IMG/VR virus record: IMGVR_UViG_3300027863_001452
Location: 1-25,642 of that record
Source: a virus
Lineage: Duplodnaviria > Caudoviricetes
DNA length: 25,642 bases
Direction: 5' to 3' (one strand)
Position 1 is the first letter of the stretch, and the number at the start of each line of letters is the position of its first letter. The position numbers and the translations under genes were made by a program. The notes below the pieces were generated by a model. That model did no database searches. It saw only the letters and a list, made by a program, of their open reading frames with translations, and had not been told where the DNA came from. Shown here piece by piece: positions 1 to 23,559 of the stretch.

Positions 1-1
1 T

Positions 2-199
2 GAAGAAAAGATTTTTGAAGAGATACTTAAGGTAGCAGAAAACTTAGGTTATTCGGTGGACGACATCATATTCCATGCAGATGAGGTGGGGCAAAAGATA
101 ACTTTAGAAAAACTGATAAACACTGCATTCAAGCTAGTGAACGATGAACTTTCATATGACCTTGAAGAGTTACTATTAGTTAAACCTATCCTCGCATAA
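2..199 (+). CDS. Hypothetical protein, C-terminal fragment (5'-truncated by window edge)
   Basis: Open frame EEKIFEEILKVAENLGYSVDD...LLLVKPILA ending TAA at 197-199, followed by a pyrimidine/T-rich terminator-like tract. Confidence 0.7.
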   Translation, partial: EEKIFEEILKVAENLGYSVDDIIFHADEVGQKITLEKLINTAFKLVNDELSYDLEELLLVKPILA

Positions 200-220
200 A
201 CTCTCCCTTTTCTTTTTTTA
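200..220 (+). terminator. Pyrimidine/oligo-T terminator-like tract
   Basis: ACTCTCCCTTTTCTTTTTTTA directly after the stop codon; similar tracts follow the stops at 526(-) and 1224(+). Confidence 0.55.
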
Positions 221-234
221 GAAATATTTAAAAA
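221..234 (+). promoter_or_regulatory. Archaeal BRE/TATA promoter of the tRNA
   Basis: GAAATA-TTTAAAAA about 25 nt upstream of tRNA position 1 (256). Confidence 0.6.
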
Positions 235-255
235 TGTAGGTAAAAGAATTTGTGT

Positions 256-330
256 GGGCGTGTAGCTCAGCATGGGGAGAGCAGTGGTCTTATAAGCCAC
301 AGGGCGGAGGTTCAAATCCTCCCATGCCCA
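256..330 (+). tRNA. tRNA-Ile, anticodon UAU (no intron, CCA not encoded)
   Basis: Full cloverleaf: acceptor GGGCGTG/CATGCCC plus discriminator A; D stem GCTC/GAGC; anticodon stem GTGGT/GCCAC with loop CT-TAT-AA (TAT at 291-293); T stem GGAGG/CCTCC with loop TTCAAAT. Confidence 0.92.
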
Positions 331-349
331 CTTCAAAAAACTTTTTTCT

Positions 350-487
350 CTAAATTTCAACTTCTTTTTCTGGGTCAGGGGTATAATAACGGCAGAACAC
401 ATGGTAACAGTCTTGGCCTTCGTAACCGTAAAGTTTGCATTTGTCTCCTTTAGGATAAGAGGAAAACTTGCAATATCTAAACTTCAT
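350..487 (-). CDS. Small Cys-rich protein (45 aa; not in ORF track)
   Basis: MKFRYCKFSSYPKGDKCKLYGYEGQDCYHVFCRYYTPDPEKEVEI*; GAGGTGA SD upstream; four Cys. Confidence 0.6.
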   Translation of the reverse strand: MKFRYCKFSSYPKGDKCKLYGYEGQDCYHVFCRYYTPDPEKEVEI

Positions 488-503
488 TTTCTCACATCAC
501 CTC

Positions 504-525
504 AAAAAAAAGAAAGGAGAGGAGT
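504..525 (-). terminator. Pyrimidine/oligo-T terminator-like tract after acrIII-1
   Basis: Minus strand TAA-ACTCCTCTCCTTTCTTTTTTTT. Confidence 0.55.
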
Positions 526-858
526 TTATAGGACTTCGCTTCTCACTATCCAGAATTCTAATTTAGATAGTTCTTCATCACTCAATATCTTTCCTTCTGG
601 AAGTCTTTGTTTGAGAAAGAAATGTATTCCAATGTCTCCCTTTTCGAAGTACACTGAAATTCTGTTCACAGGTATTGGTATTCCAAGTATTCGTGAAAGA
701 AGTTGTGCTGAACCTTCGTGGCCAACTGCTGAAACGAACTTGTTATTTGAAAGTATGTCTTTCGCTTCCTCAACAGATATTTTGTTCAATCTCACCTTTA
801 CTTCAGCAACCTTGTCGAAATTTACGGGTACGATTAAACTATTTAGGATGTATATCAT
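526..858 (-). CDS. acrIII-1: AcrIII-1 family anti-CRISPR viral ring nuclease (DUF1874; STIV B116/SIRV1 gp29-like)
   Basis: 110 aa; N-terminal YILNS, SAVGH motif with His47, NR (Arg66), RLPEG (Arg85, Glu88); same residues and numbering as the characterised SIRV1 gp29; GAGGTGA SD. Confidence 0.93.
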   Translation of the reverse strand: MIYILNSLIVPVNFDKVAEVKVRLNKISVEEAKDILSNNKFVSAVGHEGSAQLLSRILGIPIPVNRISVYFEKGDIGIHFFLKQRLPEGKILSDEELSKLEFWIVRSEVL

Positions 859-924
859 TTTTTACATCACCTCTGCATTAGTATAGCAAAGTCAGGTTTA
901 TAAACTTTTCAGTGGAAACAGAGG
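856..924 (-). promoter_or_regulatory. Conserved promoter/leader unit of acrIII-1
   Basis: Minus strand CCTCTGTTTCCACTG-AAAAG-TTTATAAA-N11-TATACTAATG-CAGAGGTGA...ATG; closely matching unit at 3621-3688. Confidence 0.8.
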
Positions 925-958
925 TTATAGGAAATTTGCGTCAAATAGAACATGTGAA

Positions 959-1023
959 GTGCAGTGGAAAAGTGGTGTTTATATAGTGGTTATGTGTATA
1001 GGATGGTAGGTGGTAGAAAAATG
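959..1023 (+). promoter_or_regulatory. Related promoter/leader unit of the 1021-1224 gene
   Basis: GCAGTGGAAAAGTGGTG-TTTATATA-N11-TATAGGATGGTAGGTGG...AAAAATG; same TATA-N11-TATA spacing and ATGGTAGGTG leader as 3621-3688. Confidence 0.65.
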
Positions 1024-1224
1024 AACTCAATAAATGTTCACGAAAAAGTAGTAAGAGAAGTGGAAGCAAGAGAGTTCGTATCCGCAGACTCAAAATTCGC
1101 AGTCCTAGTGTTGAAAGGAGAGAATCTCGAAATAGACTTCTATTTCAAGGATAGAGAAGAGTTACAGGAACTGATTTCGAAAATAGAAGAAGCATACAAG
1201 AATATAAAAGTGATTAAAAAGTAA
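1021..1224 (+). CDS. Hypothetical protein (67 aa)
   Basis: ATG at 1021 with GGTGG SD is more plausible than the ORF-track GTG at 964, which lies within the promoter; T-rich terminator follows. Confidence 0.75.
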   Translation: MNSINVHEKVVREVEAREFVSADSKFAVLVLKGENLEIDFYFKDREELQELISKIEEAYKNIKVIKK

Positions 1225-1301
1225 AACTCTCTCCTCTTTATTTTTTATTTTTTCTCTCTTTTTGAAAAAGTTTATAAATGTGTATGTTATGATTATTTGT
1301 T

Positions 1302-3260: not shown

Positions 3261-3623
3261 TCACTCTCCTAACAAGTGAAATCCTTCTCTTTTCAAATAT
3301 TTCTTCTGAAGTTCTGCTATCGCTATCCACCTTTCATTATCGATTTTCTGAATAAGATAACTCGATTTTATTCTCTTTCTTGCCCACTCGATTCTTTTGT
3401 TGAACTTTTCATCTAACTTCTCAAGTTCTTCGTGATACTCTCTCGGAAAACCTTGTTGAATATACTTTGTTGAACCGACACCTCTTATTGCCCACAGCCC
3501 TATATGTTTCCATTTAAAGTCTTCATCTTCTCTCTCACTTAAAGAAAACGGTGGAGAGGCCACCTTGAGTGAGTTCACTCCCTCACTCACGGAGATTTGG
3601 TTTTCTTTTTCTCTTATTTCCAT
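3261..3623 (-). CDS. Hypothetical protein (120 aa), first gene behind the conserved promoter unit
   Basis: ORF with AGGTGA SD and promoter at 3621-3688. Confidence 0.75.
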   Translation of the reverse strand: MEIREKENQISVSEGVNSLKVASPPFSLSEREDEDFKWKHIGLWAIRGVGSTKYIQQGFPREYHEELEKLDEKFNKRIEWARKRIKSSYLIQKIDNERWIAIAELQKKYLKREGFHLLGE

Positions 3624-3688
3624 TTTCTAAATCACCTACCATTAGTATAAGAAGACAACCTATATAAACCTTTCAGTGGAAACAAAGG
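3621..3688 (-). promoter_or_regulatory. Conserved promoter/leader unit (copy of the acrIII-1 promoter)
   Basis: Minus strand CCTTTGTTTCCACTG-AAAGG-TTTATATA-N11-TATACTAATG-GTAGGTGA...ATG. Confidence 0.8.
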
Positions 3689-4060
3689 TCAATAGAACCT
3701 TAACATTATCCAACCACCACTTCCACAGAAACCTTAAATAGGGAGCACCAGAACACACGTGCCAAGAAAACACTTCACAAAAACAAGACCACAACATAAA
3801 CTCCAAAGGAAACAATGGTAACATTTTCTGACACCACCACTTCCACTGAAGACTTAAATACCCCCCAACCACCATTTCCACTGCACCCACGAGGAAACAC
3901 TTAAATACAATCCTCCAATGGAAACAGTGGAAACAAAGGAGACAAAAAACGACACCACAATTTCCACTGCACAATACCATCTCTAGAACGTTTACTGTTT
4001 GTTTGGGTTTCTGTTCTTGTTTTGTCTTATGGTGGTTGTTTATATGTTCTATTTTTTTGT
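3660..4060. repeat. Non-coding repeat locus with ORB-like boxes and skew inversion; candidate replication origin or regulatory hub
   Basis: TTCAGTGGAAACAAAGG (3672), CTCCAAAGGAAACAATGG (3801), CTCCAATGGAAACAGTGGAAACAAAGG (3913); CCAC-preceded TTCCAC(A/T)G at 3721, 3841, 3876, 3962; A/C-rich to ~3985, then G/T-rich. Confidence 0.65.
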
Positions 4061-4163
4061 GTTCTTGTCAGTTTATCTTTCTTTTAACGTCTCCTTCTCT
4101 TCTCCTCTAACCGCCTCATATCCTTTGAACCTCATTTGTAAGTTTCGTTCGCCCACGTTTCTT

Positions 4164-4325
4164 CTAATAATATAGAAGGATGCTGTGGTAACTGTCACTG
4201 TTTCTAATCCGAGGAAACTTCCATGTGTATCCACATTTTACGCACATCACTTCATTTAATATTGTATCAAATAGTAGTTCACTGTTTCCACATCTAGGAC
4301 ATTTCAGAGACACATTTTTCTCCAT
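4164..4325 (-). CDS. Small TFIIB-type zinc-ribbon protein (53 aa; not in ORF track)
   Basis: MEKNVSLKCPRCGNSELLFDTILNEVMCVKCGYTWKF...; CxxC-x15-CxxC; ATG abuts the upstream stop; GGTGG SD. Confidence 0.7.
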   Translation of the reverse strand: MEKNVSLKCPRCGNSELLFDTILNEVMCVKCGYTWKFPRIRNSDSYHSILLYY

Positions 4326-5840: not shown

Positions 5841-8800
5841 CTACTTTCTCATTGACTTCAAAATTTTCAATACTTCTGAAAGAAATATGTTTCTCATTAA
5901 AAGGATTGCGAAAAAGTATTTGACTGCTGAAAAGATTTCTTCTACTCCAAACAATTCTTTTCTTATCATTTCAACCACCTTCTTTGTGCTATCAGATAAT
6001 CCTATTCTTTCAACTATCATGGAATAGAAGATGAAAATATATCTCTCGTTTAGAGAGAAGGTTTCATTGAACTTAAAGAATTTGGTTGGAAGGATTAGTT
6101 TAAAGTTTAGGCTAAAGACTATGCTTTTTGCGTCAGTTAACCGTTTGATGAAGACAAAGTTTATCCTCTTGTCAATTTTCACCTTTTCCATGAAAGAGGC
6201 TAAAATGGTTTTCTTGAAGGCGAATGACATATTCTGTTTTAAAGCGTCCATTGTGTACCTTCTGAAGTATGTTATCTTGTTCATTAACCCATTTGCTTTC
6301 ATGAAGTCGTTGACAATCTTTGCAATCCTCTTCTGTAAAGAGAATGCTATACTTATTCCTTCAACAAATGTTCTTGTCAGATAATGGTATGGGAATGTAA
6401 CATTTTCTTTTAGAGAAAAGATATCATATGCTTTTTCCGTGAACCTTGTAATCTTGTACTCTAAAGTTTTTATGTAATCAGACAGCCTTCTTTTAACCGT
6501 TTTCGAGACGGTGTCTGAAATCTTTAATCTCATAAACTGTATTGAGTTAAAGAACTTGCTTATTTTTTCATTTGACCATATCCTGTCCTGTACACTTTTT
6601 TTAAAGAATGAGATAGTGTTTAGAATGTGAGAGAATCTTATTGTCTCTTGAAAGAACAGTTTAGCTGACTTTAATGGTGTCAAGGTTTCTGATGTCTTGA
6701 ATCTATCGAAAACCTTTTTGGTGAAACCGAGTCTCTTAAAGGCTTCTGTGAAAGAGTAGGTTGCATAGGCTAAAGTCTTATAGTAAAAGGACATGTTTTC
6801 CCTCGCTTTAAGGTAATCGTACAGTTTCTGTGTCAAAACTCCAATTGTACTATATGTGAGACTGTAAACTGTTTTAATAGTTTCGAGAAAGGCTTTTTTA
6901 ATCTTTTTTCCGAAGTTTTCAACTGACTTTATATTTTCTGAAAAAAATCTCTTGTAAGATACTATTCTATTAAGTGTCTCGTTTAATTTTAATGTATCTG
7001 TGAAGGTTTTCACGATACCTTTCAGAAACCATAGACTTTCATTTTGTTTCAACATATTCATGAAAAATCTTTTATAGGATGCAATTCTATTGAATATTTC
7101 ATTGACTTTGAAGGTTTCTTTTAAAGTGGCAAGAACACCCTTTAATATCTTTAATGAGACCTGTACCTTTACCACATCAGATAAAATATTTCTAAAGGAT
7201 TTGGTGATACTCTCATACACTTTGACAATTTCAGTTCTCAGTGTAAGTGTTCTCTTTATGAATAAAATTTCAAGAGACTTAAAAGGTTCATAGAATATCT
7301 TTAACACGGCATTTTTTCTCTCTTCACCTAATTTGAGGAAATTAAGTCGCTTGAATATGAATACTTGCATGAAAACCTCTTTGAAGTTTAATATGGAAAC
7401 CGCTCTAAAATAGAAAATCTTCTTAGTCACTTCACTTGTCTTCCAAGCATCTTTGATGCTCTTTTTTAAGTAAACAAGTTTGTTGAGAACAACACTCTGT
7501 CTTATAGTATCTGAAAACAGACGTTTGAAACCATATATTATGTTAAGAGAGTAATTTATCTTCATCGCATCTGACAAAATTCTTCTCAGGGAAACAATTC
7601 TGTTAAAGACCTCGTTTTGTTTCAATGTATCCGTGAGAAGTTTCTTGTATAAGAAAATTTTATTAAGTATCTCATTCTGTCTGAAGTTATCTGATACGAA
7701 TTTCTTAAAGGACATAATTCTTTGAAGCGTTTCATTCTGTTTCAATCTATCAGAGAATGGTCTCATGTATGATACAATCTTTGTAATTGTTTCATTTTGC
7801 CCCATTATATCAGAAAGCGTTTTCTTATAAGAGACAATCTTATTATATGCTTCGTTTTGCTTGAACGTTTCAGAACAAAATCTTTTGTACCCCACTATTC
7901 CCTTGAAGGTTTCAGAAACTTTTGTTATCATGTAGAAGACTATTTTAGAAACCATGTTAGCCTTTTCTCTCACCTGTATCCTCTCTTGCATAACTTTTGA
8001 TAGAAGTTTTCTAAAATACTCTGTTGTCTTAAAAAATTCTTGGAGTGAAAGAATATAAAGTTTGTAGAGGGAGGTGGAGAATGTTTCAGAAGATTTTAAT
8101 GTTTCAATCTTTTTTAGAACAGTGTTCTTTCTCAATGTTTCCAACCCTTTTAGTCCATCAAAAACAAGTTTCTTGAACGAACCAATTTTTTGGAACACTT
8201 CATTTAATTTGAACACTTCTTTTAAGGAAATACCTTTGAGTATTTTCGGCCACATGCTTTCTATTGACTTAAAAAAATCGTACAGTTGAAGAGAGGTTAT
8301 TCTGTGAAGAAGGGGAGAGAATGTTTCTCTTATATTGAAAAAGTTTGAATACAGTGTATTAAACCTTTTCACGAAAGAAGGTTCACTTGTTTTAAAATAT
8401 TCGTTTATTTTAATCGGTGCATTTGTAAACGCCCACTCTTGACTTCTCGTCTGGTTTGAAGTTGCTAAAGTGTTATCGTCTATACGAAGGTAAGCGTATT
8501 GACCATTTTTCTTTGCTGTCACGTTCGCTACATAGTCTATTTCAAGGTAGTCTGTCTGGTCTACAACAGTGTATGCGGAAAAAGAGTAGTTTGCTCCAGT
8601 GTATGTTGTCCACGATGTGCCTAGGTTAGAGGATTTGCTGACTCCAGTAGCTATTGTAGTCCTAACTGTTCCATTAGATTGAAGTATCTTAATGTCTATT
8701 TCAGCATCAACTGTTCCACCACCTGTATAAGCTCGATATGTTGCATAGATTGTTGCAGAGAGAATCTGCTGTATACCGGTAAGAGGGTAAACGAATTTTC

Positions 8801-8993
8801 CCCAGACTACACGTGCAACGCTTCCAGTTGAGGCTGAAAGTGTTGTTCCACTAGCGTCTGCTGGAGTGTTAAGCTTTAGGAGGCGGTATGTTGTCCCACC
8901 TATTGTAGTCGTCTCTTGGTGACAGTATAGTATAGCATCTATTATTTTACCGTCTGTCGTGAGAAGTTTAAGGTTGCCTATTGGCTTATCCAT
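5841..8993 (-). CDS. Large putative virion protein: N-terminal Thr/Gly-rich beta domain plus ~850 aa of basic ~20-aa repeats
   Basis: 1050 aa; repeats such as KKTLSDIMGQNETITKIVSY / KKFVSDNFRQNEILNKIFLY; virion role is inferred. Confidence 0.7.
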   Translation of the reverse strand: MDKPIGNLKLLTTDGKIIDAILYCHQETTTIGGTTYRLLKLNTPADASGTTLSASTGSVARVVWGKFVYPLTGIQQILSATIYATYRAYTGGGTVDAEIDIKILQSNGTVRTTIATGVSKSSNLGTSWTTYTGANYSFSAYTVVDQTDYLEIDYVANVTAKKNGQYAYLRIDDNTLATSNQTRSQEWAFTNAPIKINEYFKTSEPSFVKRFNTLYSNFFNIRETFSPLLHRITSLQLYDFFKSIESMWPKILKGISLKEVFKLNEVFQKIGSFKKLVFDGLKGLETLRKNTVLKKIETLKSSETFSTSLYKLYILSLQEFFKTTEYFRKLLSKVMQERIQVREKANMVSKIVFYMITKVSETFKGIVGYKRFCSETFKQNEAYNKIVSYKKTLSDIMGQNETITKIVSYMRPFSDRLKQNETLQRIMSFKKFVSDNFRQNEILNKIFLYKKLLTDTLKQNEVFNRIVSLRRILSDAMKINYSLNIIYGFKRLFSDTIRQSVVLNKLVYLKKSIKDAWKTSEVTKKIFYFRAVSILNFKEVFMQVFIFKRLNFLKLGEERKNAVLKIFYEPFKSLEILFIKRTLTLRTEIVKVYESITKSFRNILSDVVKVQVSLKILKGVLATLKETFKVNEIFNRIASYKRFFMNMLKQNESLWFLKGIVKTFTDTLKLNETLNRIVSYKRFFSENIKSVENFGKKIKKAFLETIKTVYSLTYSTIGVLTQKLYDYLKARENMSFYYKTLAYATYSFTEAFKRLGFTKKVFDRFKTSETLTPLKSAKLFFQETIRFSHILNTISFFKKSVQDRIWSNEKISKFFNSIQFMRLKISDTVSKTVKRRLSDYIKTLEYKITRFTEKAYDIFSLKENVTFPYHYLTRTFVEGISIAFSLQKRIAKIVNDFMKANGLMNKITYFRRYTMDALKQNMSFAFKKTILASFMEKVKIDKRINFVFIKRLTDAKSIVFSLNFKLILPTKFFKFNETFSLNERYIFIFYSMIVERIGLSDSTKKVVEMIRKELFGVEEIFSAVKYFFAILLMRNIFLSEVLKILKSMRK
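7410..7886 (-). repeat. Degenerate 60-bp (20-aa) tandem repeat, ~8 clearest units
   Basis: Recurrent (S/T)(D/E)xxxQNE register at an exact 20-aa period. Confidence 0.8.
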
Positions 8994-12159: not shown

Positions 12160-13083
12160 CTATGAACTCCTCAGCCCAATCATTTTCACGATACTTTCTG
12201 GATAGGTTATGACAGGCGCATACCTTGCTGTTACAATAACGTCTATACTGTCAAAGTTTGGCTGTGGCCATACTGCGACACTGATTGGTCTCTTCACTAC
12301 AAAGAAACCGAGTGGTGCATATGCTCCTGAAGCGTTTGCTCCTGCGGCGGCAAGAACATAGGCTCTTCCCGCTGGAACGTTTGGTGTAACAATCTGTTTT
12401 AATCCAAAGAGTGTTGGTGTTGGAGTTGGAACAGTACCAGAACCTTGAGTGTACACTGGAACGTTAGAGAACAGGTATGCGGCGAACTGTGGAAGTGCCA
12501 TCAAGTCTTGGTGCTGAAGTGGGTTCATGACAATGGTGTCTGGTTCAAGAGCGTACTGTTGAATTATTGCTTTAGCGTTTGTGATATCGTTGACACCTAT
12601 TGTCCCACTTCTTGTCGAACTTGTTCCGTCCATGAAAATGCTTGTTCCTGTGGCAGAGAATGTTGAAGTTGTAAGTGCGGCAGAGTTGAATGCGGCTTCA
12701 ACGTCCTGGTCTATGGTCATGACCAGACGTCTTGCGGCTCGCCTCAACTGGTCTTCTATAATATTCACAATCTGGTCTTCCAATAGTTCTCTTGTAATCC
12801 TTACGGCTGTACCAACCTTGTAAGGTGTTACGGTTACGACAGTGTATGGAGTGTAGTCTGAAACAATCTGTGCACCTTCCTCTGTTCTCCCGACTACTGC
12901 AACAGTTCTCTGTCCAGCCTGCTTTGGTATAGCGGCTGTGGCACCAACTCTGATGACCAACTCTTGCAAGAGTGGTTTCAGAGCAAGTGCTGGCATTGTA
13001 AGCTCAACAATCCTCTTTGACAGAGCAGGATAGAACATTGCACCGGTTGTATCCATCGTGAAAGTCTCTCTAACCATACTCAT
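12160..13083 (-). CDS. Major capsid protein (HK97 fold)
   Basis: 307 aa; EGAQI, KVGTAVRITRELLED, IVMNP, LFGLKQIVTPNVP patterns; follows the protease/scaffold and cement genes. Confidence 0.92.
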   Translation of the reverse strand: MSMVRETFTMDTTGAMFYPALSKRIVELTMPALALKPLLQELVIRVGATAAIPKQAGQRTVAVVGRTEEGAQIVSDYTPYTVVTVTPYKVGTAVRITRELLEDQIVNIIEDQLRRAARRLVMTIDQDVEAAFNSAALTTSTFSATGTSIFMDGTSSTRSGTIGVNDITNAKAIIQQYALEPDTIVMNPLQHQDLMALPQFAAYLFSNVPVYTQGSGTVPTPTPTLFGLKQIVTPNVPAGRAYVLAAAGANASGAYAPLGFFVVKRPISVAVWPQPNFDSIDVIVTARYAPVITYPESIVKMIGLRSS

Positions 13084-18824: not shown

Positions 18825-19050
18825 AGTTGACGAGAAAAAGCTTCTTGAGAAGGTTAAGATTTTCAAGAGCGGTGGAACATATGTTGGCATTATCCCATCG
18901 TTTAGCAAACCTGACGTGAACTACACTGTCGTATTCGACCTCGCCTCATCTCATATATCGTGTACTTGTCCTCATTTTGTTTACAGACAGAAGCCTTGCA
19001 AGCACATTGGACTGTTTATTAAAGCCATGAAAGAAAAGGGGTTCACGTGA
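18808..19050 (+). CDS. SWIM zinc-finger protein
   Basis: YTV...SCTCPHFVYRQKPCKHI (CxC-xn-CxH). Confidence 0.85.
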   Translation: MQCTVEVDEKKLLEKVKIFKSGGTYVGIIPSFSKPDVNYTVVFDLASSHISCTCPHFVYRQKPCKHIGLFIKAMKEKGFT

Positions 19051-22000
19051 AAAACTTTTCTATCTTCTCCGTCTTATCTTCTGACACGAAAATTCCAAGC
19101 CTCTTCAGTATCGGCATAATCTGGTTCTTTTCATAGTAGGTGTAGTCTATTTCACCTTTTTTGACGAAGTCAACTATTTTTGGAACACCTTTTCTGCAAA
19201 TAACATAGTGTATGACACCATATTTTTTAAAGTCTTCTGTGACAAGACCCTTTTCTATCGCATCACGTAATGCTTTCACATGCTGTGCGTTCACCTTATA
19301 TTCTTCAAGACCTTTTGAAACACTTTTGCTTAGGACAAGCATATCATCATATTTTCCACGTTTCATGTCATCTATAACTTTTCTCGCATACTCTTCAATC
19401 TCTTTTCTCGTCTTACCTTCTAAAAGCATTCTGATAACATCCTCTTGAACTTTTTTTGCAAGGTCACAGTTACCACACCATATTGGTTTTCCTTTGTATC
19501 TTACAAATATGATACCATTAGGAACTGTAACACAGAACACTTTTCCTCTATAATTTATTCTTTTAATATCTTTCTTTTCAACATAACCTTCATGAAATTT
19601 TCTTTCTCTAATCCTATATATTAAACGTTTTCCTTTATATCCCTTCTCTGTACACTCTCTTATTGTTCCCAAAGAACCACATTTTAATAACATTTCTTGT
19701 AAATCATCTGCCAAACGTTTAGAAGATGTACAGTATTCTTTAGAACCATGACTGATATAACCATCAAATTCTACAAAAGTATCTAAGAAACATCTTATCA
19801 TATTACTTTCCAATTCCTTTATATTTTGGTCAACAAATTTGTCCTTCGCATGCCCATATTTGCTTAACATTTTCGCTAAAGCAGACGAATATATTGTAAA
19901 TGTAGTTACTCCTTTTTTATCTGTTTTTTCTGTATATTTGAATGGCAATTTATTCAATATTTCTCTAACCAGTTGAATCTTATTTTTCTGTCCTATACGC
20001 ACTTTCCTTTTATCTGCCCACCCTTCTGCTAACCATAAAGCCATGAATCTCACCCAATCCTCGGTTTTGATTTTATACCCTACTACATCAAAATAATCTT
20101 TTTTCTTTCCTTGCCATTTCGCCGTCCTCAAAAATCTATAATATGATTTCACCAGATTTCTTGCTTCAATAAACTTATACTCTTTACTCTCGTTTTCTTT
20201 AACAAGCATTCTATGTTCTGGTGTTACACCAATTTCTATACTCTTATTTTCTATTTTAATAATCTCACCATCATAATCTTTTCGTATTATTTTGATTGGT
20301 TTCTGATATTCAAGAAAGCCATCTTTTCCTAATGTTGCAACAAAATCTTCTTCCGTTACATCTCTAAAGTTCTTCCAACCATTTATTGTTAATATCTCTG
20401 TACCATCTATAAAACACCAGTCGCCTCTCTCATGTTCTAATCCAACTATCTCCATCATGTTTTTTTCACCATTTTTTCCAACCGCTATTATTCCAGCATA
20501 CCTTTTCTTTACAGACGTTCCAGCACTTGAAAGGGGAAAGAGGATTTTACTCCAGTATCCTTCAAACTTCATTCTAATGTTGGAAACGTTAAACTGTTGC
20601 CTTATCGCCTCATTGATAAGGTTCTGTATAATATCCTTTTTCTCGAAAGGTGCTTGGATGAAGATAGAGTCAGTGTCACCGTAGATGACCTTGAAACCTA
20701 TGCTTTCAATAAACTTGATTGTGAAGAGAATTATTTCTCTACCTTTTTCCGCAACCTTTTCTCCAACCTCTGAAGAGTATACTCTACTGTATGGGCTACT
20801 GAAGAAACCGTACATGCTGTTGACGAGAAGCTTGTAGGCCATGTATTCTATCTCATCTTTTGCCTTCTCCTTCTGCTCCAAATATTCTTTCACTATCGGT
20901 ATAAAAACCTCTTTTCTATCCCAAGGTGCAAGTTCAAATCCTATGAGGATATTCGGGTAAAGTGAATTGTGTGTTAGGATGCCGTTTGCAAAATAGTATG
21001 GAAATTCCTCCCATTCTAACGTTATATCGTAAACGGGCCCATTATACTTATATGTTTCTATATTTTTGATTTTCTCGATGGAAACATAAGGGTTTCTGTT
21101 TCTATTACCCTTACATATTACATGCATACATAATCCGAATTTTGGATGTTTCCCCATTCTCTTTGAACCTAAAATCCTTTCACGAATAATGTTACGAAGT
21201 TTCTCGTTTTTAACTGAGGAGATAAATCCGATTTCAGTATAAAATTTCAGAAGAGAATAGAGACCTTTCAGTTCACAGTACCAATTTGAATATGTACGGT
21301 TACATTTGTTTTTATATGAATATTTATGGGAGTTGAAGGATATTCCAACATCATTCAAAAATTGAGAAATTATTTTGAGCTTTTCTTCATTAACCGTTGA
21401 CTGAATAAATTCAATTGTCTTACGTTTTATGTTAACTGTGCCGTCTCCTTCAAAAAATCCAGATAAGAATGAAAGTTTCTCTTCTAATGAGGGATTTTTT
21501 AAGAAGTCTTCTAACCTTCGGATGAAGTCGAGAACAATATTCTTTTTCGAGAATACTAAATCGACGCCTTTTGAATTTTTCTTTCTTTTCTCATAAATGT
21601 GGATAGATGGATATTCTGAAGTTAAAGTGGAGACAATAAAATCTCTTAATTCCTTCTCATCGCTTGAAATAGAGAAAGAGATACGATATTGGTGTGAAAC
21701 TCTTTTACAGTTTCTTGTTTTGTCAAAGTATGGAATATCTTTTCTTAGAAAACTTCCTTCGGCAAAAAATATTCCAAACAGTTTAGCCATTTTGTTTTCA
21801 TTATAAACAGGCGGGTTTCCTTGAAATACAATCAGTTTTTCTCCTTTCCTCAATTCTTCAGCCATTCTCTCTTTTATCTTGTTTCCGATGATGACGGGAA
21901 ACTTATGTTGTAAAGTAGCATCTATTGTTTTACCGCTTTCAAGCTCTATTTTTCTCAACAGTGAATTAATGTTGTAGATATGAATTTTTTTAACATGTTG

Positions 22001-23158
22001 CCAACCGTATGGTGTTAAAACCTCCTCTCCCTCTCTTAGAGAAGAGATTTGTGTTAACCCATGTCTTGTAATCACAAGAGTGTCTCCCCTGAGACAAGAG
22101 AAATCATATTGGAGAATGTTCTCATATATTCCTGATTTTGGCATGTGAATGTATGCACCCTTGTATTTTTCATGTGTTCGTTCCACATATGATGGACACA
22201 CGTAACCAAGTGCTCTAGCACGTTTCAAGATAATGTTGGTGTGAACAGGTGAAGGTGTTACAGTGTTCTTGTCCTCACGTTTGCCTAAAACGAGGTCTGG
22301 AAAAAGGTTTGACATTTGAGCCAAATGAATTGCGAGCTTGCTGAAATGAAATTTCATGTCAACTTTTTCTGTCATAAGAGTATCCCACACATTTCTTTCC
22401 CTTATCTCCTCCTCTTTCAAGTCCTTCATTCTCTTACCCTCATAAGGTTTGGTTTCATTAAATTCTTTTGCCACATAAGATAGACTGTACCTTGACCTGT
22501 TGACCGTATAACGGTAAAATTGCATTATGTCTAGGAATCTGATAGAATGTTCATCGACATTGACACCATTCTTTCTACACCTTTTAACAAAATACTCTTT
22601 GTCCCAGTCACTGTTCCAGCCAATTAGTAGGCGAACATGTTCTTCTTTTAGGTAGGAGAGGAAATTGGATAAAATGTCCTTCTCGTCTCCCTGAAACGTT
22701 TCTATCCCATCTCTTTTCACTGAAATCGCTATAATCGGTTCTGATGCCGTCTCCTGGTCTGGGAAACCGTTTGTGTCCAAAACCTCTATATCCCAATATG
22801 CTTTCACGTTCTCGTAAGATGGGCATTTGATGCTATTGTCTATCATCCACCGTTTCGTATACGGTATGTCTCCCTCGTACACTCTTCTACCGAACCTTTC
22901 AATATTGTCTCGAAAGTTTTTCACATGTGCTGGAAACATGAAAGAATATTTTTTCACGTTCTCGTTCGTGTCAAGTGTCTTGAGAGAAGTGTTTTCTACT
23001 CGTATTGGAAACTTTGATTCGACATCGTATGCTGATGGAACAAAACAGTATGGTTCAGGATATGCTTCAACCTCTTCCACATCGTTTTCAGTGTAAAGTT
23101 TCATGTACAGTTTCCCGTTCTTGACAACATAGTTGGCGGAACAGACACCTGCTGTCAT
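19043..23158 (-). CDS. polB: Family B DNA polymerase with two inteins (678-aa extein)
   Basis: ExoI WDIE, ExoII GWNSDWD, motif A YDFS|SLYP, motif B KLLVNSMYG, motif C YGDTDS, KKRY. Confidence 0.96.
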   Translation of the reverse strand: MTAGVCSANYVVKNGKLYMKLYTENDVEEVEAYPEPYCFVPSAYDVESKFPIRVENTSLKTLDTNENVKKYSFMFPAHVKNFRDNIERFGRRVYEGDIPYTKRWMIDNSIKCPSYENVKAYWDIEVLDTNGFPDQETASEPIIAISVKRDGIETFQGDEKDILSNFLSYLKEEHVRLLIGWNSDWDKEYFVKRCRKNGVNVDEHSIRFLDIMQFYRYTVNRSRYSLSYVAKEFNETKPYEGKRMKDLKEEEIRERNVWDTLMTEKVDMKFHFSKLAIHLAQMSNLFPDLVLGKREDKNTVTPSPVHTNIILKRARALGYVCPSYVERTHEKYKGAYIHMPKSGIYENILQYDFSCLRGDTLVITRHGLTQISSLREGEEVLTPYGWQHVKKIHIYNINSLLRKIELESGKTIDATLQHKFPVIIGNKIKERMAEELRKGEKLIVFQGNPPVYNENKMAKLFGIFFAEGSFLRKDIPYFDKTRNCKRVSHQYRISFSISSDEKELRDFIVSTLTSEYPSIHIYEKRKKNSKGVDLVFSKKNIVLDFIRRLEDFLKNPSLEEKLSFLSGFFEGDGTVNIKRKTIEFIQSTVNEEKLKIISQFLNDVGISFNSHKYSYKNKCNRTYSNWYCELKGLYSLLKFYTEIGFISSVKNEKLRNIIRERILGSKRMGKHPKFGLCMHVICKGNRNRNPYVSIEKIKNIETYKYNGPVYDITLEWEEFPYYFANGILTHNSLYPNILIGFELAPWDRKEVFIPIVKEYLEQKEKAKDEIEYMAYKLLVNSMYGFFSSPYSRVYSSEVGEKVAEKGREIILFTIKFIESIGFKVIYGDTDSIFIQAPFEKKDIIQNLINEAIRQQFNVSNIRMKFEGYWSKILFPLSSAGTSVKKRYAGIIAVGKNGEKNMMEIVGLEHERGDWCFIDGTEILTINGWKNFRDVTEEDFVATLGKDGFLEYQKPIKIIRKDYDGEIIKIENKSIEIGVTPEHRMLVKENESKEYKFIEARNLVKSYYRFLRTAKWQGKKKDYFDVVGYKIKTEDWVRFMALWLAEGWADKRKVRIGQKNKIQLVREILNKLPFKYTEKTDKKGVTTFTIYSSALAKMLSKYGHAKDKFVDQNIKELESNMIRCFLDTFVEFDGYISHGSKEYCTSSKRLADDLQEMLLKCGSLGTIRECTEKGYKGKRLIYRIRERKFHEGYVEKKDIKRINYRGKVFCVTVPNGIIFVRYKGKPIWCGNCDLAKKVQEDVIRMLLEGKTRKEIEEYARKVIDDMKRGKYDDMLVLSKSVSKGLEEYKVNAQHVKALRDAIEKGLVTEDFKKYGVIHYVICRKGVPKIVDFVKKGEIDYTYYEKNQIMPILKRLGIFVSEDKTEKIEKFFT
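19469..20416 (-). mobile_element. Intein 2 (316 aa) with LAGLIDADG-type domain, at RGDW|C in the thumb
   Basis: Starts CFIDGTEILT, block B VTPEHRM, ALWLAEG and DTFVEFDG, ends VFCVTV...WCGN followed by Cys. Confidence 0.9.
20966..22096 (-). mobile_element. Intein 1 (377 aa) with LAGLIDADG homing endonuclease, in Pol motif A
   Basis: Starts CLRGDTLV, block B ATLQHKF, LAGLIDADG blocks GIFFAEG and SGFFEGDG, ends VYDI...ANGILTHN followed by Ser. Confidence 0.93.
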
Positions 23159-23559
23159 TCGACAATCTCCTTTACAATTTCATAGAGGTCTGGATGGTTT
23201 TCTTTTAACGTGGAAAGTTTAGGAGGACGAAGGTTTATTCTCCTAGCCCTTAAAACATGATATTCTATCTGTTCATCGGCATCTGTTTCAGCCACCACCT
23301 TACACTGGTTAATATATTCTCTACAAACTTTCATAGCCTCCTCGTCAGACAGTTTCAGTATGTTCACGCAAAATGGTGCAATGATAAGCCAAAGTATCCT
23401 ATGTCTTCCATCAGAAACCGGATGAAGGAGTAGTCGGTAAACATAATCGTATTCGTCCAAAAAATTGGTGGGAGATGAAATACTTTCCTCATAAGATTTT
23501 GTCTTCATGAAATTTGTTGTAGAATATTTTTTTCTGATATCATCCCATGAGGAAAGCAT
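23155..23559 (-). CDS. PriX-like (primase X / PriL C-terminal-like) protein
   Basis: DGRHRILWLIIAPFCVNILKLSDEEA and LRPPKLSTLKENHPDLY resemble the Sulfolobus PriX pattern; stop overlaps the polB start. Confidence 0.7.
   Translation of the reverse strand: MLSSWDDIRKKYSTTNFMKTKSYEESISSPTNFLDEYDYVYRLLLHPVSDGRHRILWLIIAPFCVNILKLSDEEAMKVCREYINQCKVVAETDADEQIEYHVLRARRINLRPPKLSTLKENHPDLYEIVKEIVE

Follow-up and report, generated by a model that had tools for sequence, protein, structure and literature searches.

A tRNA-Ile gene with the anticodon UAU in a tailed archaeal virus, a probable TiaS-independent reader of AUA

The window, by which we mean the whole stretch of 25,642 nucleotides that was analysed, includes a viral gene for a tRNA-Ile with the anticodon UAU. 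We propose, with a probability of roughly 0.62, that this virus-encoded tRNA with U34 is aminoacylated with isoleucine in the host cell and reads AUA without TiaS in lytic infection. That it is a working Ile decoder appears quite likely, while a back-up against tRNA depletion is a tentative choice for its main purpose, put somewhat below an even chance. Whether the host natively uses UAU or depends on TiaS is about evenly balanced. The features on which the argument rests are the following.

2..199, + strand: 3′ part of an upstream viral ORF, which runs on into record G713
123..162, no strand assigned: CRISPR protospacer, matched by a spacer with 3 mismatches and one 24-base repeat on both flanks
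220..234, + strand: BRE/TATA-like archaeal promoter AGAAATATTTAAAAA, a consensus match only, the first T of the box lying 29-31 bases before G1
256..330, + strand: tRNA-Ile(UAU) gene without intron and without encoded CCA (ARAGORN, Rfam and pair table)
291..293, + strand: anticodon TAT, read from the sequence, in the loop CTTATAA with the closing pair U31.G39
342..347, + strand: T6 run, by its sequence a likely archaeal terminator
350..487, − strand: 45-amino acid Cys-rich ORF that separates the tRNA from acrIII-1, preceded by GAGGTGA as a strong ribosome-binding motif; no Pfam match
526..858, − strand: AcrIII-1 / DUF1874 family protein, a predicted cA4 ring nuclease (PF08960, E 4e-28)
12160..13083, − strand: HK97-type major capsid protein (PF25209, PF05065, phrog_1650), which marks a tailed virus

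ARAGORN called a tRNA-Ile(tat) at 256-331, and the Rfam model RF00005 matched nucleotides 256-330 with 69.1 bits (cut-off 29, E 2e-13). This sequence folds as a cloverleaf (z −2.45, with 3 of 200 shuffles equally stable) in which every stem position is paired, two of the pairs, G5.U68 and U31.G39, being wobbles, and the tRNA invariants U8, A14, G18, G19, U33, the T-loop TTC and A58 are present. ARAGORN, Rfam, the fold and the pair table thus bear out the intact cloverleaf with TAT at 291-293 that a sequence-only reading of this DNA had described, and the three Ile-type elements named there, C4-G69, U12-A23 and A73, are all found in the pair table. They belong to a bacterial list of Ile determinants (PMC9976931 Table 1, where the archaeal entries for Ile are blank), of which A35, U36, A37 and A38 are present as well and C29-G41 is not, the viral gene having G29-C41; the same inversion occurs in most Iainarchaeota TAT genes. 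The features given for tRNA-Met (C34, and U4-A69 and A5-U68 in the bacterial list) are absent, the corresponding positions being U34, C4-G69 and G5.U68, and by sequence the gene is neither a tRNA-Met nor a pseudogene, two possibilities that had been raised beforehand. Nor does it encode the C34 of the agmatidine-type tRNA-Ile2(CAU), the substrate of TiaS, as a T stands at 291 in all contigs examined. Because U34 is encoded in the gene, the viral tRNA cannot be a TiaS substrate, and the TiaS-independence supposed in the sequence-only reading stands for an Ile-type tRNA of this kind. The TATA box attributed to the gene corresponds to the match at 220-234, one of 11 BRE/TATA-like consensus matches in the window when both strands are counted. 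The spacing between box and leaderless tRNA was dropped as a virus-specific trait, the tRNA genes of two Aenigmatarchaeota genomes, G438 and G453, having an equal TATA spacing of 29-31 bases.

The letter at 291 was checked in assembled contigs of four public runs, not in raw reads, a procedure by which rare variants would be lost. In run X1, which may be the source run (depth 103), the tRNA gene lies within one contig that shows no difference from it, and the same holds for run X2 (depth 167). No alternative letter is listed for the anticodon at 291-293 in the contigs of the four runs, neither the C nor the G that would have changed its reading, and a second assembly (L234) is identical to the window over positions 1-1000. 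A sequencing error at 291 was rejected on these grounds. Conservation of the tRNA in relatives is represented by one relative in one run (X4), which spans 251-363 and departs from the window in 10 letters and one gap; of the 8 differing letters listed, 0 lie in the anticodon. In this relative the T-stem pairs 306/322, 307/321 and 308/320 are altered on both sides in a compensatory manner and TAT is kept. Half of a tRNA-Ile(GAT) occurs as loose contig ends in runs X1, X2 and X4.

The kinship of the gene was examined in a comparison without the intron-bearing genes of Korarchaeia, other Thermoproteota, Micrarchaeota and Nanoarchaeota. Over 75 bases, TAT genes of the Iainarchaeota type are identical to the viral gene at 60 positions on average (best 64, n = 15; some of them were picked up with a pattern derived from the viral gene, 12 with a neutral one), Aenigmatarchaeota TAT genes at 55 (n = 3, most other genes having been dropped in parsing), TAT genes of the genome scan at 55 (n = 51) and Thermoplasmatota CAT genes at 50 (n = 8). 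Other virus-borne Ile-TAT genes reach 52 (range 48-56, n = 16 distinct genes of 63 loci), and the present gene further differs from them in being carried by an archaeal virus. In a 90-row tree for which the wobble base had been masked, the viral gene is nested within those of Iainarchaeota with support 92/88, a placement that is only a hint because the alignment has 74 columns and the bootstrap did not settle, the branch not being starred. Three related cellular genes (L230, L232 and L235) adjoin ileS, which supports the Ile reading of this tRNA family.

Base 31 was counted by eye, and kinship among the genes inflates the counts: it is U in 44/44 TAT genes of Iainarchaeota and 56/65 of Aenigmatarchaeota and G in 76/77 CAT genes of Thermoplasmatota, the viral gene having U. 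An archaeal Ile body bearing both U34 and U31, the combination typical of native DPANN genes, is found in the virus. Its U31.G39 pair likely marks a long-standing UAU gene, as judged from the sequences compared, and not a fresh C-to-T mutant of a CAU gene; an origin as a point mutant is disfavoured by the U31 shared with Iainarchaeota genes, together with the identity pattern. Across the genes inspected, U34 accompanies U31 or other weak 31-39 pairs (A.A and A.G in CPR genes) and C34 accompanies G31-C39. Many Iainarchaeota Ile-TAT genes carry C38.

Genes for tRNA-Ile(UAU) have been reported in Nanoarchaeum equitans and Ca. Korarchaeum cryptofilum (PMC8450103, PMC6000648), the latter gene carrying an intron (PMC6000648), and in ARMAN-2, -4 and -5, which are without TiaS (PMC3239211). 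The viral gene is like these archaeal ‘Ile3’ tRNAs in combining an archaeal Ile-type body with a gene-encoded U34, and unlike them in its setting, since theirs are chromosomal, often intron-bearing and found in TiaS-less cells whereas the viral gene is intron-free. Our first genome-wide pattern demanded A38 and no intron, so that intron-bearing genes such as that of Korarchaeum were invisible to it. It returned 74 Ile-TAT loci, 68 of them bacterial (mostly CPR and Ignavibacteria) and 6 archaeal by title, one of which clusters with genes of CPR, probably through misbinning; none of the 74 is identical to the viral tRNA. An Iainarchaeota pattern with these two demands matched in only 3/121 genomes, a count that was low because of them and was corrected by a 5′-half pattern open to either C or T in the wobble position.

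The 5′-half pattern was run on three phyla, each represented by a sample of incomplete MAGs: the Iainarchaeota, phylum of G006 (Ca. Iainarchaeum); the phylum of G009, named Aenigmatarchaeota from the labels on 8/8 core proteins of its member G438; and, as a control, the phylum of the Thermoplasmata genome G010. Iainarchaeota gave 44 matches in 43/121 genomes, 44/44 with TAT, and Aenigmatarchaeota 65 matches in 62/151 genomes, 65/65 with TAT. The TiaS model (PF08489), which matched in 4/4 named archaea used as positive controls, was found in 1/121 Iainarchaeota genomes (G068) and in 0/101 Aenigmatarchaeota genomes. The control Thermoplasmatota gave 78 matches in 77/121 genomes, 77 with CAT and 1 with TAT, this last being the centre genome G010, which had been chosen for its TAT; G010 combines TAT with U31 and has no TiaS match. 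UAU is the rule, and TiaS nearly absent, in the samples of Iainarchaeota and Aenigmatarchaeota. The sequence-only reading had treated UAU tRNAs as exceptions among archaea, a view that these counts and the published ARMAN cases (PMC3239211) do not support. Those cases apart, our literature search found no paper that treats DPANN, TiaS and UAU together.

Among the viral contigs of IMG/VR, two patterns found 26 and 63 Ile-TAT loci with 4 contigs in common, 85 contigs altogether, and a tRNA-Ile(UAU) gene has been reported in a prophage (PMC10688831). The present gene resembles these virus-borne tRNAs as an accessory AUA tRNA, carried alone or in clusters; tRNA-Ile matches in Bacillus and Enterococcus phages were likened to it by isotype, their anticodons not having been read. 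Ile-TAT is thus common in viruses, contrary to the statement in a review (PMC8007984) that phages are without such tRNA genes. Full-text searches of Creative Commons papers and bioRxiv turned up no archaeal virus with a tRNA-Ile(UAU). The viral gene joins two known kinds, the native archaeal UAU tRNAs and the virus-borne ones.

The window is part of a tailed archaeal virus, with an HK97 capsid protein, a terminase, a family B polymerase with inteins, a PriX-like primase subunit, a DHH nuclease and a glycosyltransferase, and the two best runs carrying it are labelled hot springs metagenome. Record G713 overlaps window positions 1-127 exactly and extends the virus 37.7 kb upstream with portal and tail-tube genes, so that about 63 kb of an incomplete genome are known. 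Three complete relatives (G001, G002 and G003) of 105-107 kb have core genes in common with it and capsid proteins at 64-66%; none of the three has an Ile tRNA, two being without any Rfam tRNA match and one having a single tRNA-Lys(CTT). The capsid of this virus family had no match in the GenBank phage collection. The window further contains two inteins in the polymerase gene (19043-23158, −), a stand-alone PriX-like protein (23155-23559, −; NF033412 above cut-off) and a 1050-amino acid protein that contains 20-residue repeats and matched no family (5841-8993, −), and the G713 part includes a radical SAM/SPASM protein, an AAA-vWA pair, an ERCC4 nuclease and a portal gene with an intein. A promoter block consisting of the motif CAGTGGAAA and a TATA box recurs at 863-1034 and 3602-3689 of the window and at 182-341, 3501-3641, 4159-4229 and 7187-7267 of L435, a locus of the same virus; standing before several small genes on both strands, it is likely a common early-gene control element.

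A second tRNA-like gene of the same virus lies at G713:C1:13404-13479 (−), equivalent to L434:1501-1576 (−), with an Rfam score of 42 bits and no ARAGORN call. Its loop is CCUGGAA (UGG, with C33 and A37), and it has an A10.C25 mismatch, an encoded CCA and its own TATA-like box; these features suggest that it may be an odd Pro-reading, degenerate or decoy tRNA.

The AcrIII-1 neighbour resembles the structures of AFV3-109, the SIRV1 gp29 type and STIV B116. It shares with SIRV1 gp29 (bioRxiv 10.1101/778746) the domain and the residues H47, R66 and R85, described there as the catalytic His47 and the cA4-binding R66 and R85; the three are invariant in 20/20 aligned sequences, and for the neighbour the activity is predicted. 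The AcrIII-1 of SIRV2 is reported to have no anti-CRISPR action in native infection (bioRxiv 2023.01.10.523387). The tRNA had been described as lying beside an anti-CRISPR gene, which holds in that 195 bases separate the two and fails as to direct adjacency, the 45-codon ORF standing between them; relatives of this stretch (350-487) are present in run X4. A fixed tRNA-AcrIII-1 module was rejected, since 0 of 35 other viral AcrIII-1 loci had an Ile-TAT gene in their fetched flanks. Together with the lack of an Ile tRNA in the three complete relatives, this argues for an accessory gene that is independent of acrIII-1. In 4 of the 35 loci (L401, L403, L404 and L408) a tRNA-Arg(TCT) lies at most 0.8 kb upstream of the AcrIII-1 gene.

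The virus is targeted by CRISPR. The spacer of run X1 is a 94-base contig (record 2) with loose ends at window positions 123 and 162 and the 24-base repeat on both sides, and two contigs of like size in run X2, matching 123-162 (record 10) and 20-61, are probably spacers too. The repeat belongs to a type I-A/III-B cassette that is common to bins of several phyla.

These data bear on two accounts of the host. In the first, a plausible one if somewhat short of even odds, the host is natively UAU-using, a thermophilic DPANN archaeon or a member of the Korarchaeia, and the virus carries a spare host-type tRNA by which nothing is bypassed. The nearest genes to the viral tRNA are chromosomal tRNAs of Iainarchaeota, and the Korarchaeum UAU gene is one that the intron-free genome-wide pattern would not see (PMC6000648). 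When window positions 1-1300 were compared with 215 Iainarchaeota genomes, 2 candidates being scored in each, the best of the matches listed were the tRNA itself (up to 86% over the gene), and no virus or spacer match was among them. The exact spacer-flanking repeat was found in 2/371 Aenigmatarchaeota genomes, with 143 matches within 2 mismatches in G438, including exact copies on two contigs, and 68 at 2 mismatches in G453; G438 has an intron-bearing Ile-TAT gene, a Cmr2 gene and no TiaS match. Against this account, no array with the repeat was present in the 215 Iainarchaeota genomes. The Ile-TAT genes of Aenigmatarchaeota, that of G438 included, are unlike the viral gene (group best 56/75), 0 of the 164 spacers of G438 and G453 convincingly matched the window, G713 or the relatives, and the capsid protein had no close relative in the 371 Aenigmatarchaeota genomes (weak matches in 3/371).

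In the second account, which carries a comparable weight, the host is a TiaS-using member of the Thermoproteota, from the Verstraetearchaeota/Methanomethylicia or the Bathyarchaeia, and the UAU tRNA is a foreign one brought in by the virus, as seems to be the case for many bacterial phages. It draws on the frequency of Ile-TAT genes in viral contigs, on AcrIII-1, which implies a host with type III CRISPR, and on the taxon labels of the repeat-carrying cassette, which also speak against a UAU-native host. At 90%, the Csa1 beside the G438 array shares a cluster with proteins that bear Verstraetearchaeota, Thermoplasmata and Aenigmatarchaeota labels, the next-nearest labels being Bathyarchaeia (81/78/72%), Desulfurococcaceae (81%), Thermofilaceae (80%), Parvarchaeota (78%) and Nezhaarchaeales (73%), and the ring-nuclease-like gene beside the array clusters with a Desulfurococcaceae label. 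By these labels the cassette of G438 is mobile or misbinned. Hot-spring archaea exchange repeats and cas cassettes, which weakens the second account as well. The clusters of the capsid and AcrIII-1 proteins contained no host names beyond one Thermoproteota label, that of the bin holding a homolog of AcrIII-1, which speaks for the second account. The genomes searched for the repeat were those of Iainarchaeota and Aenigmatarchaeota, and the use of TiaS by most Thermoproteota is taken, as a general statement, from PMC8450103, PMC6000648 and PMC3239211. The 24-base repeat had no match in the literature searched, in viral contigs or in the supplements of one paper, and terms for TiaS were absent from those of two papers on hot-spring archaea (supplements of PMC10848311, PMC9723716 and PMC6783470 were covered). 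As a whole, the tRNA points to DPANN and the CRISPR clue leans to Thermoproteota.

Codon use was counted with simple ORF calling. The sequence-only reading had called ATA common on the strength of the ORF at 1021-1224, where it makes up 4/6 Ile codons; this count is correct, but there is no enrichment over base composition, as ATA accounts for 275/631 Ile codons (43.6%) in 36 ORFs of the window vs 43.1% expected from A at four-fold sites. Because the share equals the compositional expectation, ATA enrichment was rejected and the codon argument is unsupported; the AUA demand of the virus is real, with no sign of enrichment. Codon compensation, with the tRNA carried to serve an AUA use far above that of the host, is therefore unlikely, even though the virus has 35 AUA per 1000 codons vs 11-22 in the three complete relatives without an Ile tRNA and ATA is only 5% of Ile codons in three Iainarchaeota loci: the share falls to 36% in four structural genes (7/22 in the capsid gene) and reaches 53% in G438, above that of the virus. 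In the three complete relatives it is 20-35%.

In archaeal viruses a lone tRNA gene frequently serves as an attachment site, and the second, odd tRNA-like gene shows that this virus retains non-standard tRNA bodies, yet it is very improbable that the gene is an integration target, a captured host gene marking the edge of a provirus, or the source of a decoy RNA outside translation, given the viral genes on both sides (including those 37.7 kb upstream), the compensatory T-stem changes in the X4 relative, the absence of an identical gene among the 74 genome loci, the lack of a second copy of any 12-mer of the tRNA gene anywhere in the window, and the absence of a tyrosine integrase in 5/5 records of the virus and its relatives, 3 of them complete. 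The provirus-border or attP tRNA was rejected in this way for the about 63 kb known of the virus, and with it the suspicion that the gene might be an identical host gene at a provirus boundary. With no integrase, no recurring 12-mer and no Ile tRNA in the three relatives, the tRNA-Ile(UAU) gene is an accessory gene within a probably lytic virus.

For the proposed reading of AUA without TiaS, we envisage that the tRNA was captured from a TiaS-less, UAU-using archaeon and did not arise by a C-to-T change in a CAU gene. Lying among small early-type genes, it would be transcribed by the host polymerase from a TATA box of its own; the host would then supply the CCA end, and its IleRS the isoleucine; and the charged tRNA would read AUA without TiaS, topping up or replacing the cell's single AUA reader once the pool runs short. 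Type III CRISPR RNases, which the neighbouring AcrIII-1 is predicted to damp, could be an example of what causes such a shortage. Two further genes of the same virus are a stand-alone LigD 3′-phosphoesterase at L435:6327-6710 (+; PF13298, E 3e-32) and a weak match to a HAD/NT5C-type phosphatase at L435:14819-15307 (−), which by homology are possible candidates for nucleic-acid end-healing enzymes. The early-type gene position, AcrIII-1, the spacer and these enzymes would fit a possible back-up against RNA damage.

The consequences of such decoding would depend on the host. U34 mutants of tRNA-Ile in Haloferax are poorer IleRS substrates and misread AUG (PMC3895270), and the tRNA-Ile2(UAU) of Mycoplasma mobile misreads AUG on E. 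coli ribosomes and not on its own (PMC3575796). The viral tRNA is like that of M. mobile in that AUA would be read by U34 without a C34-modifying enzyme, and unlike it in that the IleRS and ribosome of M. mobile are adapted to U34. Misreading of AUG by U34 tRNAs would mean a cost to the virus in a TiaS-type host, and such misreading, expected on unadapted ribosomes, counts against a TiaS-using member of the Thermoproteota as host. In a UAU-native host the viral tRNA would duplicate the cell's own; to work in a TiaS host it has to keep from reading AUG. A bolder version, which we consider rather unlikely, places the virus in a TiaS-using Thermoproteota host, where a UAU tRNA from an Iainarchaeota-like DPANN donor would provide a second, modification-free route to AUA on unadapted ribosomes, with U31.G39 as its AUG-avoidance device, and would form with AcrIII-1 and the RNA end-healing enzymes a kit that sustains translation under type III CRISPR attack.

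As an intron-free thermophilic tRNA, the viral tRNA-Ile(UAU) offers a clean natural case for how UAU avoids AUG in archaea, with U31.G39 as a candidate determinant of this avoidance. If the host is a TiaS user, the gene would represent the transfer of a decoding system from DPANN to a virus; otherwise it would be an ordinary spare tRNA. The side result, UAU without TiaS as the norm in two DPANN phyla, may outweigh the gene itself.
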